DNA of 63,613 nt, counting the filler, from Bacteroidales bacterium (GTDB taxonomy: Bacteria; Bacteroidota; Bacteroidia; Bacteroidales; CAIWKO01), in NCBI GenBank assembly GCA_035389045.1. It is 4 parts of 4 records of this genome, joined end to end, with 100 filler letters (N's around TTAATTAATTAA, not from the genome) between each part and the next. Parts side by side here need not be neighbours in the genome. Positions count along the whole stretch, not along the records: positions 59,646 to 63,613 come from DAOORA010000124.1; 3 more parts are not named here. One strand, written 5' to 3'. A program made the position numbers and the translations under genes. The notes under the pieces are model-generated. The model ran no database searches. It saw only the letters and a program-made list of their open reading frames with translations, and was not told the origin of the DNA. This document shows positions 20,657 to 63,613 of this stretch, one piece after another; the first letter of the stretch is position 1, and every line of letters starts with the position of its first letter.

Positions 20657-20756
20657 NNNNNNNNNNNNNNNNNNNNNNNNNNNNNNNNNNNNNNNNNNNN
20701 TTAATTAATTAANNNNNNNNNNNNNNNNNNNNNNNNNNNNNNNNNNNNNNNNNNNN
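20657..20756. other. Artificial contig linker (Ns + TTAATTAATTAA)
   Basis: 100-nt N run containing a six-frame stop linker at 20701-20712. Confidence 0.98.
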
Positions 20757-40287: not shown

Positions 40288-40387
40288 NNNNNNNNNNNNN
40301 NNNNNNNNNNNNNNNNNNNNNNNNNNNNNNNTTAATTAATTAANNNNNNNNNNNNNNNNNNNNNNNNNNNNNNNNNNNNNNNNNNNN
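40288..40387. other. Artificial contig linker (Ns + TTAATTAATTAA)
   Basis: N run with linker at 40332-40343. Confidence 0.98.
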
Positions 40388-59545: not shown

Positions 59546-59645
59546 NNNNNNNNNNNNNNNNNNNNNNNNNNNNNNNNNNNNNNNNNNNNTTAATTAATTA
59601 ANNNNNNNNNNNNNNNNNNNNNNNNNNNNNNNNNNNNNNNNNNNN
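59546..59645. other. Artificial contig linker (Ns + TTAATTAATTAA)
   Basis: N run with linker at 59590-59601. Confidence 0.98.
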
Positions 59646-59888
59646 ATAACGTTTGTGTTGCTGTATGTGCTGCAATATATACTATGTTCTAATTGTGGCA
59701 GCAACCCATTTTCTGCCTATAAATGTGCTTAATATCAATAAATTACATTTTATACTTTTACAATTTCTATTCATATTTTCTTTCCATCGCTTACTCAAAT
59801 AAATAATAATTTTCCGGAGTCATTAATTTATACTTCACAAACTGTGGCAGCAATCTCATTTTTTAGTATAAAAGCATTAATAATCAAG
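59646..59888 (-). repeat. Direct-repeat cluster ending in a GTT core; putative recombination (attI-like) site
   Basis: Minus strand TTGCTGCCACA at 59843-59853 and 59694-59704, TTGCAGCACA at 59666-59675, CAGCAACACA at 59654-59663, then AACGTTAT at the contig end. Confidence 0.5.
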
Positions 59889-59891
59889 TTT

Positions 59892-61400
59892 TTAAGTTTT
59901 TATATCCATATTATCCAGAGGACTTTTAATCTGTTCCATTCCTTTATGGGTAATATGAGTATATATTTCTGTGGTTTTACTTGAACTATGCCCCAGCAGC
60001 TCTTGTATATACCTTAAATCTGTCCCTCTTTCCAGCAAATGGGTTGCAAAACTATGTCTCAACGTATGTACAGTTGCTTTCTTCATAATTTTTGCATTAG
60101 TACACGCTCTTCTGAAAACATGCTGTATGCTGCTCTCAGAATATTGCTCGCCCCGCTGTCCTTCAAAAAGCCACATCTTTGGTTGGTATTGCTTAAAATA
60201 TTCTCTCAAAATTAATAATAACTTTTCCGATAACAAGCTATTTCTGTCTTTTTTTCCTTTGGCTCCTTTAATAATAATTGCTTTGCGGCGGCTGTCGATA
60301 TCAGCGATCTTTAGGTTTGTTAACTCGCTGATCCTTAGTCCTGCCGAATAAATGGTCAATAGTATGGCTTTATGTTTCAGATTCGTAACGCTGTTTATTA
60401 TTTGTTTTACTTCTTCTTCACTAAGCACCGTCGGCAATATCCTTTCCTTAAATGGCCTGTCAATAGTTATGTATGGCAATTTCTTACTATTACAAACTTT
60501 TTCATAGTAAAATTTTATGGCATTGATTGCCTGGTTTTGAAACGAAACCGAAATTTTTCTTTTTTCAAAAAGGTACAGAAGGTAACTTTTAATATCGTCC
60601 TCTGTTATCTCGTTCAGTTCTTTCTTGCTGTAATAATTAATAAAATCAGAAAATGCAACAGTATAGGTTCGGATGGTATTATCGCTGTATCTTTTTAATT
60701 TGAGTTTTTCAATATATTCATCAGGGCATTTCCTTTCGTTTCCATATTTTTTAAGTTCTTTTTTGTTGAACCCCTTTGTATTGATAAAATGGGTCTCTAT
60801 CTGATAATTAAAATTTTTGAAATAGTACTCAATTTCTTCCTTGATGTGTTGTGAGTAGGGGAAGCTCCAGTGTTTTTGGTTTTTATCCCAAAAATAATAG
60901 GGGATGGTCTTCATTTTTGCAATATGCGTTTTGCTGAACGGAAACCTGAGTATAATCTTCCGGTAATCAATTATTTCGATTTTGATAATCCTGATTTTTT
61001 GATTTTCATTATTGATTTCAGAAACAGGTAAAGATGATTTTTCTGTCATCGCGCTCTCTAATTGCGAATCATCAAACTTTGAGGCACTTCCTTCATCAGA
61101 TAATCCTGCATCTGAAATCTGTCTTTTGGCATTTGGTTCTTGAAACTTTGAATTTGGATATTCATCCTTCTTAAAGATAGCCGTAGTGTCCAAAAATGCT
61201 ATGCCTTTGAATAGCCTGAACAGTTCTTTTAAATTATCTCTGTTGTTGGCTATGTGCCAGTTTTCAAGAGTACTACTAAACGTCGCACCCTTTACTTTTT
61301 TTATAAGTGCAATAAGCTCAACATCATACGGAAACAGAACCAGCAGCCGCTCCGCCCCGCGATGATTTACCGGTTTTAATACGATCGTTTTCATCCTCAA
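59892..61400 (-). CDS. Tyrosine recombinase (XerD/integron-integrase-like) with a long N-terminal extension
   Basis: SAM-like domain YSDNTIRTY...QNQAINAIKFYY; catalytic YSAGLRISE, KGKKDR, HTLRHSFATHLLE, LLGH and TTEIYTH; probable start ATG 61394. Confidence 0.93.
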   Translation of the reverse strand: MRMKTIVLKPVNHRGAERLLVLFPYDVELIALIKKVKGATFSSTLENWHIANNRDNLKELFRLFKGIAFLDTTAIFKKDEYPNSKFQEPNAKRQISDAGLSDEGSASKFDDSQLESAMTEKSSLPVSEINNENQKIRIIKIEIIDYRKIILRFPFSKTHIAKMKTIPYYFWDKNQKHWSFPYSQHIKEEIEYYFKNFNYQIETHFINTKGFNKKELKKYGNERKCPDEYIEKLKLKRYSDNTIRTYTVAFSDFINYYSKKELNEITEDDIKSYLLYLFEKRKISVSFQNQAINAIKFYYEKVCNSKKLPYITIDRPFKERILPTVLSEEEVKQIINSVTNLKHKAILLTIYSAGLRISELTNLKIADIDSRRKAIIIKGAKGKKDRNSLLSEKLLLILREYFKQYQPKMWLFEGQRGEQYSESSIQHVFRRACTNAKIMKKATVHTLRHSFATHLLERGTDLRYIQELLGHSSSKTTEIYTHITHKGMEQIKSPLDNMDIKT

Positions 61401-61494
61401 AATGACTTACAAACATAAAAAATATTTCCATATCAACAAATTCTTTTTGAAAAAATTTTTATAACATAACATTTTATCTCCCAACCAATCCCCC

Positions 61495-61552
61495 CGGTGG
61501 CTGAGCGAAGTCGAAGCCACCGCTGCTATAGCTGAGGCCCTCGAAGACACCG
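61495..61552. repeat. REP-like palindrome pair (GCTGAG-N4/5-TCGAAG family)
   Basis: CGGTGGCT-GAGCGAAGTCGA-AGCCACCG hairpin at 61495-61522 plus a degenerate second copy GCTGAGGCCCTCGAAGACACCG at 61531-61552. Confidence 0.65.
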
Positions 61553-61826
61553 TTCCAAATCAGAAAAAACAATACAATACTTTGTATTTCAAAAATAAAT
61601 TTGTATTTTTACACAAGCCAGGAAGTGTGATTTGTTTAAGCCTCATTCAGAACACACCATCAGCACAGCAAAAAATTTCAGTGGCGTACGGAGTGGCTTG
61701 TTCCGTTTAGGTTTTTTTACCCTGAAATAAATACCGGCTGCTTCCGGAAATCATTCGGGATCATTAGCGGACATAATAAGATCCGGCAGCAATAACGATA
61801 GGATTGTTTTACAAAAAAAGACACGC

Positions 61827-63359
61827 ATGAAAACAGAAAATTCATTTATTTACAAACCACGAAAGTTTTCTTCTATCGAATTATGGAAGAATGTCACAGC
61901 AAAAGAATGGTACGATCCTGACTGGCAGGTAAGGAATACGGTCAGAAACATAGAACAGTTGCAAAAGGTCATAAAACTAAATCCTTACCAGGCCGGTGAA
62001 ATACAAAAGGTTATCTATGAACTCAAAAATCAGGGAAAAGACACCCTGCGGATCTCGCCTTATTATGCTTCACTTATGCAGGAAGATCCATTTCATCCGG
62101 TAATGCTTCCCGGCGAAAAATCTGAAAAGAGAATTGACCCTGTTTTTTGGCAAAGTGTGCCTACACCGGCTAATTTATTATTTCCTGATACAGGGTTAGA
62201 AGGCGCCATGCACGAAAGTTCGCGGAGTTATGGAGCTGCATATCAGCGCTATCCGAACCGGGTCGCTCTTTTTGTAGCTGAAAATACAAGTTGTGCATCA
62301 TATTGTGTTCACTGTCAGAGAGCAAAATCGTTAGACTGTTCAGTAGATGTGAACAGCACTGAAATAAACAAAGGTTTGTTCTATATAACATTTAATAAAA
62401 ACATCGACGAAGTACTTGTTACAGGGGGTGATGCGCTGATGATCAGCAAAAAACGTTTGCAATACATTCTCGAAGAGTTAAGCCGGATACCGCACATAAG
62501 GGTAATCAGAATCGCTACCAGAGTTCCTGTGGTTTTGCCGATGGGAGTAACCGATGAACTGCTGAGATTAATCCGGACCTCCTCCAATAAATATAATAGG
62601 GGTATTGATAAGAACGTCTATTTCATGACACATGTCAATCACTATCAGGAAATTACTGAAGAACTGATGAAAGCTGTGAAAAAAATTCACAGGTATGGTT
62701 TTACGGTAAGAAATCAAACCGTATTGCTGAATCATGTTAACGATTATTATAAAACCCTGGCAGAAACATTCCGCAGGATGTTCTGGATCGGCATACATCC
62801 CTATTATTTGTTGCAGTGTCATAAAGAAAAAGGTATTGTTCATTTCATCACGCCGATACAAATAGGAAAAATATATATGAAACATTTGCAGGGGTGGATA
62901 TCCGGGATAACAATACCGCGATATGCTGCAAATATTGAAGGCGGTGGCGGAAAAATTCTTTTAATGCCTTCAGGACATGATACATTGAATACCGGGATTG
63001 GCATTGATGACAAAATATCAGAAAGTTATGCAACCGTATTTACTTGGGATAGCAGAAAAATTTTCCGTTACGAAGCACTTGGAAGAGCATCGAAGGAAGA
63101 ATATGAAAATGGTGTGAAAATAATGGATGCTTTTATAGGCCGGAAGGGGGTATTTCTTCCTAAACTAATAATCATAGACAAAAAAGGTAAACATATTGAA
63201 ACCACCAACAGAACCAAACTTCCGTACATCGAAAAAATGAAAAAGTCTGCACTGTTGGAATATGAATTATTCGACACGAAAATGCCACTGACTAACCCAC
63301 AAGATATTGAATATGAAATTGAAAATCAATTCATAAAATCTAAATACAACACAAAATAA
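61827..63359 (+). CDS. KamA-family radical SAM/PLP 2,3-aminomutase-like protein (substrate uncertain)
   Basis: W.D..WQ..N, RYPNRV, CASYCVHCQR (CxxxCxxC), TGGDAL, RIATRVPVVLP, NQTVLL, PYYL and GGGGK PLP lysine. Confidence 0.9.
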   Translation: MKTENSFIYKPRKFSSIELWKNVTAKEWYDPDWQVRNTVRNIEQLQKVIKLNPYQAGEIQKVIYELKNQGKDTLRISPYYASLMQEDPFHPVMLPGEKSEKRIDPVFWQSVPTPANLLFPDTGLEGAMHESSRSYGAAYQRYPNRVALFVAENTSCASYCVHCQRAKSLDCSVDVNSTEINKGLFYITFNKNIDEVLVTGGDALMISKKRLQYILEELSRIPHIRVIRIATRVPVVLPMGVTDELLRLIRTSSNKYNRGIDKNVYFMTHVNHYQEITEELMKAVKKIHRYGFTVRNQTVLLNHVNDYYKTLAETFRRMFWIGIHPYYLLQCHKEKGIVHFITPIQIGKIYMKHLQGWISGITIPRYAANIEGGGGKILLMPSGHDTLNTGIGIDDKISESYATVFTWDSRKIFRYEALGRASKEEYENGVKIMDAFIGRKGVFLPKLIIIDKKGKHIETTNRTKLPYIEKMKKSALLEYELFDTKMPLTNPQDIEYEIENQFIKSKYNTK

Positions 63360-63554
63360 AAGCCATCTTTCAGACATAAAAATAGTAAGTTGTGTCTAAG
63401 TTAATTTCAGTCTCAAAGTTTGACACACCCTAACCCCAATGCTGCAAGGTCAACGATCCGTCTGGACGGTGATCCATGTGATGCAAAACCCGTAGTACCC
63501 GACGCCTTATTCCAGAGACTTATCTAACTCAATCTCCCAGTATCCCAAGCTGAC

Positions 63555-63613
63555 AATATCCCAATCTCCCAATCTCCCAATCTCCCAATCTCCCAATCTC
63601 CCAATCTCCCAAT
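63555..63613 (+). repeat. 8-bp tandem repeat (AATCTCCC)n, six perfect copies + one variant, runs off the window end
   Basis: Direct reading; degenerate copies also at 63531-63548. Confidence 0.95.

Follow-up and report, generated by a model that had tools for sequence, protein, structure and literature searches.

What does a KamA-type aminomutase act on once both of the aspartates that would hold lysine are gone? The question is raised by a gene in a 63,613-nucleotide stretch of DNA (the window) from a Bacteroidales bacterium (assembly GCA_035389045.1), in which separate contigs of a metagenome-assembled genome (MAG) are joined by runs of N (20657-20756, 40288-40387 and 59546-59645). The gene (Table) lies on a contig of 3,968 bp (window 59646..63613) and encodes a KamA-family protein with histidine and asparagine where lysine 2,3-aminomutase (LAM) has its aspartate pair; we refer to this protein and the relatives that share its pair as the HN (His/Asn) clade. 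Our answer is tentative, and we would put its chances somewhat below even: the enzyme would be a non-lysine 2,3-aminomutase of a distinct clade that turns glutamate or glutamine into a beta-amino acid serving as compatible solute. The strongest functional clue, which lay beyond the sight of a preliminary description made from the window sequence, is that relatives of the gene stand in salt- and osmotic-stress operons.

The protein passes the cut-off of the general KamA-family model TIGR00238 (233.5 bits against 199.2), and its cofactor motifs are in place. A HMMER alignment to PDB 2a5h, the LAM of C. subterminale, covers residues 17-382 (E 1.2e-58; LAM positions are the printed chain numbers), and the 37- and 7-residue spacings that lead to the lysine binding pyridoxal 5'-phosphate (PLP), His332 to Asn369 to Lys376, are those of LAM (Asp293 to Asp330 to Lys337). 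In 60 of 60 family sequences the cysteines of the CxxxCxxC motif and Arg165 do not vary, and Lys376 is nearly invariant (at least 90%); among the best 120 homologues Lys376 is found in every one (120/120). All 13 columns that are invariant in the family are present in the window protein. The preliminary description had reported that the CxxxCxxC motif, the arginine two residues past its third cysteine and the PLP lysine were intact, and both a script and the 2a5h alignment bear this out. It had also placed His332 and Asn369 at the LAM aspartates with unchanged spacing, and the HMMER alignment restores no aspartate at either site, keeping the two residues opposite Asp293 and Asp330.

A full-length AlphaFold2 (AF2) model was obtained with a predicted local distance difference test score (pLDDT) of 88.4. 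Foldseek matched it to LAM at E 1e-29, 2a5h being the only solved relative, and VIA-align superposed model residues 12-409 on 2a5h with a Z of 43.4 and a root-mean-square deviation of 1.6 A over 339 residues at 35% identity; in this model the protein has a LAM-type fold. As far as sequence and model can tell, the protein is a catalytically intact amino-acid 2,3-aminomutase of the radical S-adenosylmethionine (SAM), PLP-dependent kind.

None of the models for enzymes of assigned specificity accepts the protein. It fails the cut-offs for AblA/LAM (TIGR03820, 266.6 against 525.4), glutamate 2,3-aminomutase (EAM; TIGR04368, 248.1 against 650), arginine 2,3-aminomutase (TIGR04468, 199.7 against 600) and EpmB (TIGR03821, 165.8 against 369.3). 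With EpmB (YjeK) and the arginine enzyme it has the superfamily core and cofactor motifs in common, but it scores far under their thresholds. With LAM (KamA/AblA) it shares the fold, the CxxxCxxC motif, the arginine and the PLP lysine; unlike LAM it has lost both lysine-binding aspartates and the group of three cysteines in the tail, and Tyr307 aligns with LAM Cys268. We take Cys268 and the C-terminal cysteine cluster of LAM to be the ligands of its zinc site. That cluster stands 38-46 residues past the PLP lysine in five of five LAM-type sequences inspected, whereas the 134 residues C-terminal of Lys376 in the window protein hold no cysteine at all, as the preliminary description had said of the last ~130 residues. 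Two EAM-type sequences inspected likewise have tails without cysteine, but these are short, ending about 40 residues past the PLP lysine, and the HN protein has instead a C-terminal extension of about 100 residues. According to a passage of the paper on SFLD (Structure-Function Linkage Database), two aspartates bind lysine in LAM, and EAM has a conserved Lys/Asn pair there that is tied to glutamate binding. The verdict of the preliminary description, neither a LAM nor a standard EAM, thus stands: both cut-offs are failed, the aspartate pair is lost, and the protein belongs to a clade of its own outside the Lys/Asn (K/N) type.

The EAM of the Clostridia type (TIGR04368) is nevertheless the known enzyme with which the HN pocket has most to compare. 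Both have the radical SAM/PLP 2,3-aminomutase core, asparagine at the second side-chain position and key residues numbered nearly alike. We defined as EAM signature those columns that are invariant in six K/N representatives and occur in fewer than 10% of 103 representatives with the LAM-type Asp/Asp (D/D) pair. Six columns result, in query numbering M128, R140, Q164, K332, N369 and W407, and all sit in well-aligned motifs (DP[ML]xE, [QRH]RYP, C[QT]R, QC[HKD], [ND]xxGGGGK and TW[DE]). The HN clade reads M-Q-Q-H-N-W, keeping Met128, Gln164, Asn369 and Trp407, and both basic residues have become neutral polar ones: glutamine for the arginine of the RRYP motif, histidine for the substrate-binding lysine. 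In 6 of 8 HN representatives four of the six signature residues are kept; P0156 has two, and P0142, a fragment spanning three of the positions, also has two. By comparison, none of the six occurs in 109 of the 128 representatives outside the HN and K/N types; 17 have a single one, and there is one representative with two and one with three. Position 164, for example, is glutamine in 6/6 K/N and threonine in 75/103 D/D representatives.

These substitutions suggest a pocket of glutamate size that has lost its positive charges, in which position 140, and perhaps 128 and 407 as well, would contact the substrate. In a pocket neutralised in this way a carboxamide (glutamine) should fit no less well than a carboxylate (glutamate, with His332 protonated). 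Because the signature is EAM-like at four of six positions, glutamate remains a live candidate, and the new substrate that the preliminary description thought probable is not established. Aspartate, which it had listed among the possibilities, is by our own reasoning chemically void, since a 2,3-amino shift on aspartate gives aspartate back.

We examined how far the pattern extends. A word-indexed search scored 1,957 relatives, of which the best 120 serve as close homologues: they are about 495-559 residues long, 73-80% identical, mostly from Bacteroidales MAGs where named, and go by 'KamA family radical SAM protein' or 'lysine 2,3-aminomutase' in their sources. The His/Asn pair is invariant in all of them (120/120). 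In a library of representatives at 50% identity, HMMER scores fall from 561, 381, 378, 364 and 311 bits to 205 or less, and we therefore regard the clade as discrete. Among 142 aligned family representatives the pair is H/N in 8, D/D in 103, K/N in 6 and something else in 25; the 8 are exactly the clade members, including some that are only about 31-45% identical. An H/N pair invariant in 120/120 and 8/8 is therefore not a product of chance. A quick, unrooted maximum-likelihood tree of 47 rows recovered the 13 HN rows as monophyletic (Shimodaira-Hasegawa approximate likelihood-ratio test 99, stem 0.57), and its four K/N rows as another branch (support 88) nested among D/D rows. One K/N representative, P0152, passes the EAM cut-off (693.1 against 650), and the members of its cluster are named glutamate 2,3-aminomutase.

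Other pairs at the two side-chain positions were seen among the representatives (P0139, P0194, P0203, P0174 and others): K/S, S/T, N/N, M/A, E/D, D/E and more. So many further pairs suggest that the KamA family holds additional unassigned specificities. In the SFLD paper the network of the PLP-dependent subgroup contains clusters that lack annotation.

The genomic surroundings of the HN gene were compared across 81 loci (the window locus, L001, and 80 from named genomes; relatives of Paludibacter, Mariniphaga and Prolixibacteraceae are represented), in which 920 open reading frames (ORFs) were called and clustered. Salt- and osmotic-stress genes share the orientation of the HN gene, at gaps of 0-50 nt, in several lineages; they include genes for Na+/H+ antiporters, the trehalose synthase/phosphatase OtsAB, Usp and the ribosome hibernation factor HPF. 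Locus L076 has the aminomutase gene followed by a K-Cl-cotransporter (KCC)-like permease (23-nt overlap), MscS, a trehalase-like GH15 protein and a bifunctional OtsAB (948.6 against a cut-off of 634). L031 runs from a Na+-translocating pyrophosphatase through a KCC-like gene to KamA (gap 4), MscS and GH15. L042 has AraC, HPF, KamA (overlap 4), GH15 (gap 16) and OtsAB, and L059 has AraC, two Usp genes, KamA (gap 3), a membrane protein that we call TM12 (gap 44) and NhaD. Counting loci with at least one such gene, by hidden Markov models (HMMs) built from these Bacteroidales neighbours, we found osmotic neighbours at 16/81 genome loci and at 5/12 metagenome loci, several of which duplicate genome loci, as against 1/68 loci around other KamA-family genes in the metagenome scan. 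Such genes number 7 in the 4.46 Mb of the window organism's genome. Mapped onto a tree of 90 HN proteins, the association takes 9 changes, of which starred branches force at least 5, and is absent from a 36-row clade; with 9 changes it is therefore not one inherited block.

TM12 is a conserved multipass membrane protein of 397 residues (L006:6787-7986, L080:6786-7979, L059:9560-10759 and seven further loci). In 6 loci its gene precedes KamA, 11-25 nt upstream, and translational coupling to the HN aminomutase is frequent. Pfam (E up to 5) and NCBIfam gave no match to it, and in the Atlas it groups at 0.99 with clusters of the 'sodium:proton antiporter family'. Across an even sample of the order its homologues occur in 38/201 genomes, namely 6 of 15 HN-positive and 32 of 186 HN-negative ones, counts that include non-independent kin; it adjoins the HN gene in two of these genomes, G192 and G091. 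A gene of the histone-deacetylase family (acetyl-amine amidohydrolase type) was also seen 23 nt upstream of one HN gene (L038:1763-3511) and nearby in L044; a link to solute deacetylation is possible.

The reaction itself should be that of LAM and EAM. A [4Fe-4S] cluster on Cys156, Cys160 and Cys163 would cleave SAM to the 5'-deoxyadenosyl radical. Held as an aldimine with the PLP carried on Lys376 and anchored through Arg165, the substrate would then undergo a 1,2-amino shift and leave as a beta-amino acid. To judge by the pocket, the substrate would be of glutamate size and end in a carboxylate or, as would suit the pocket better, in a carboxamide, which makes it L-glutamate or L-glutamine; to judge by the neighbourhoods, the product, beta-glutamate or beta-glutamine, would serve as a compatible solute. 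A narrower version can be put forward, although we think it improbable in this full form: the clade would be a glutamine 2,3-aminomutase, its EAM pocket retuned from carboxylate to carboxamide by the exchanges Lys to His and Arg to Gln, and beta-glutamine would be a neutral solute whose production is regulated jointly with that of trehalose, with MscS, and with the extrusion of Na+ and the uptake of K+/Cl-. We know of no description of a glutamine 2,3-aminomutase activity so far.

The methanogen EAM on which Tunckanat et al. published in Biochemistry in 2022 reportedly has an N-terminal extension. Going by its title and a citing preprint, that work concerns beta-glutamate made for salt tolerance (Tunckanat et al. 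2022), a role that matches the one proposed for the HN enzyme. Beta-lysine and beta-glutamate, products of aminomutases, act as osmolytes, as does N-epsilon-acetyl-beta-lysine, the beta-isomer pool being metabolically static; Methanohalophilus accumulates beta-glutamine as an osmolyte, and methanogen AblA makes an osmolyte precursor, as sections of the Roberts review relate (PMC1224877). Likewise, osmoprotectant genes associated with the Na+ riboswitch include ablA and eam, as stated in a passage of a further paper (PMC9337991). In the literature searched, with most subscription papers out of reach, neither a KamA clade of the H/N type nor an osmolyte made by an aminomutase in Bacteroidales is described; the family analysis or supplements of Tunckanat et al. 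2022 may already show an H/N cluster.

Other accounts of the enzyme have to be set beside this one. It could be catabolic, the first step in the fermentation of a peptide-derived amino acid by anaerobic Bacteroidales, comparable to KamA in the fermentation of lysine, which we consider unlikely. The hosts are anaerobes of digesters and activated sludge, and HN genes have among their neighbours an M19 dipeptidase (2 loci), an M24 Xaa-Pro aminopeptidase (2 loci), an S9 peptidase and an amidohydrolase. Furthermore, 27/81 loci share a synteny in which metallophosphatase/PQQ-propeller, DUF937 and OmpA-like genes are followed by KamA and then by a convergent gene for aldehyde:ferredoxin oxidoreductase (AFOR). 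However, the peptidase neighbours vary by lineage, AFOR is encoded on the opposite strand, and the tight co-directional operons are the salt and osmotic ones. No locus has enzymes that process beta-amino acids (such as an aminotransferase or dehydrogenase, a CoA-transferase or an ammonia-lyase), whereas a genuine LAM locus, L083, has KamB adjoining. Somewhat less probable again is that the beta-amino acid goes into a lipid, a secondary metabolite or some component of the cell envelope, or that the C-terminal domain recognises a larger substrate. This would give a place to the clade-specific extension of about 100 residues and to the OmpA-domain gene that is the immediate neighbour in 22/81 loci (17 upstream, 5 downstream), in two arrangements; but OmpA-domain genes are common and our cluster groups them by domain only, no NRPS/PKS (nonribosomal peptide or polyketide synthase), ligase or acyltransferase recurs as a neighbour, and the alpha-carboxylate Arg165 is conserved together with a pocket of the free-amino-acid type.

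That the enzyme is still a LAM, binding the epsilon-amine in some different way, seems to us very improbable, even though LAM is the top-scoring specific model (266.6 bits) as well as the only relative with a solved structure. Both aspartates are replaced in every clade member, the AblA score is half of its cut-off, and a related genome, G021, carries a canonical LAM alongside its HN gene (LAM sequences that we checked derive from other genomes). The partners of lysine-type enzymes are missing too. The genome of the window organism, 96.3% complete, has one KamA-family gene and no second paralogue; unlike AblA, its enzyme has no AblB partner there, TIGR03827 finding no match, and the best EpmA match in that genome, a 583-residue frame, stays below the cut-off (240 bits against 286.9). 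No Kam partner adjoins the gene, nor does one in the longer metagenome contig described below. The preliminary description had made the point that no ablB, epmA or kamDE is adjacent, which is true but nearly empty for a contig of only 3,968 bp.

Several observations weigh against a solute-making enzyme. The HN and EAM clades are not sisters in the 47-row tree, and the shared signature may therefore be convergent or ancestral. As many as 65/81 genome loci lack an osmotic neighbour, the PQQ-propeller/AFOR synteny of 27 loci says nothing on salt, and the peptidases or amidohydrolase adjoining some loci would fit catabolism equally well. The low figure for other KamA genes, 1/68 loci with an osmotic neighbour, comes from an imperfect control that sets many phyla against HMMs built on Bacteroidales. 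A search of the window organism's genome found no TM12, KCC-like gene, OtsAB or GH15, and its HN gene is solitary, between an integrase and a repeat-rich spacer. Finally, Rfam scans of the contig (permissive) and of nine related loci (at gathering thresholds) found no Na+ or c-di-AMP riboswitch upstream, the sole match being one tRNA.

In the genus of the window organism, a search with the EAM model found the 510-residue type in 5/18 genomes and did not find it in several genomes that are 96-98% complete. In the even sample of the order it occurs in 15/201 genomes and 14/167 genera, and a phylum-wide sample had it in 0/400 genomes besides the window's own. A metagenome scan seeded with distant clade members (P0121-P0126 and P0156) returned only Bacteroidales-type HN genes and other KamA families. 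The clade is essentially confined to anaerobic Bacteroidales. A different KamA homologue was met in the family of the window organism (G018, L086:400-2772): it has the D/D pair, scores 478 against 525 with the AblA model and adjoins an ATP-grasp gene resembling D-Ala-D-Ala ligase, and the two may be a beta-lysine ligation pair.

The C-terminal extension is conserved across the clade at Met433, Phe436 and Asn461. An Atlas search with the C-terminal 128 residues as query gave a top score of 0.77, too low to be informative. An AF2 model of residues 383-510 alone, made without an alignment, had a pLDDT of 67.7 and a secondary structure that conflicts with the full-length model, and was too poor to serve as a query.

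On the window's short contig only one neighbour, a divergent integrase gene, can be reached. The leader between the two matches nothing in Rfam and shows no sign of structured RNA (fold z-score +0.99 against shuffles), and its terminator-like hairpin is weak, with 3 G-C pairs. The G+C content of the aminomutase gene (0.381) is unremarkable against that of the genome (0.41), so that its composition does not point to recent transfer. A search for sequencing runs listed five DNA runs and no RNA run. L090, a metagenome contig, matches all 3,968 bases at 100% identity and extends 7.6 kb beyond them. It has 1.2 kb of tandem repeats 3' of the gene, and because these broke the assembly the MAG contig stops inside the repeat spacer. 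The spacer, running from window ~63530-63613 into L090:3977-4937, contains CAATCTCC 16 times and ATCGTCCT 22 times, with higher-order units of 141/274 nt across ~760 nt. The next downstream gene (L090:4980-7199) encodes a 739-residue protein with a hydrophobic N-terminal segment and no Pfam family, and beyond it are genes for a DnaJ-domain protein, DapF, GNAT and YceG. None of these is an evident partner for the aminomutase.

Table. Features of the aminomutase locus, in window coordinates.
Feature	Position	Strand	Basis
KamA-family radical SAM/PLP aminomutase gene, HN (His/Asn) clade	61827..63359	+	510-residue ORF
Met128 (EAM-type) and Gln140 of the QRYP motif (Arg in EAM, His in LAM)	62208..62246	+	
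CxxxCxxC [4Fe-4S]/SAM motif Cys156/Cys160/Cys163 (CASYCVHC), Gln164, alpha-carboxylate Arg165	62292..62321	+	script-checked
His332 codon (QCHK), position of LAM Asp293/EAM Lys	62820..62822	+	alignment, script
Asn369 codon (ANIEGGGGK), position of LAM Asp330/EAM Asn	62931..62933	+	alignment, script
Lys376 codon (GGGGK), PLP Schiff-base lysine, opposite LAM Lys337	62952..62954	+	alignment
Clade-specific C-terminal extension, residues 410-510, Cys-free	63054..63356	+	LAM superposition stops at residue 409
Tyrosine recombinase/integrase, divergent neighbour, context only	59892..61400	-	Pfam Phage_integrase 4.2e-40 and N-terminal SAM-like domain
Intergenic region/leader, 426 nt, 5' of the aminomutase gene	61401..61826	+	
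Terminator-like hairpin and T run within the leader	61688..61706	+	

Few specificities are established for the radical SAM/PLP aminomutases: lysine (in two stereochemistries), glutamate and arginine. If our reading is true, the HN clade, with a residue code of its own, would add a specificity to these or else a second independent mode of glutamate binding. It would correct a widespread 'lysine 2,3-aminomutase' annotation, for which M-Q-Q-H-N-W together with the C-terminal extension offers a simple recognition rule. It would further put a name to a compatible solute, and to the gene for its synthesis, in anaerobic Bacteroidales, a major group in digesters, sludge and sediments, habitats whose performance is limited by salt and ammonia stress.

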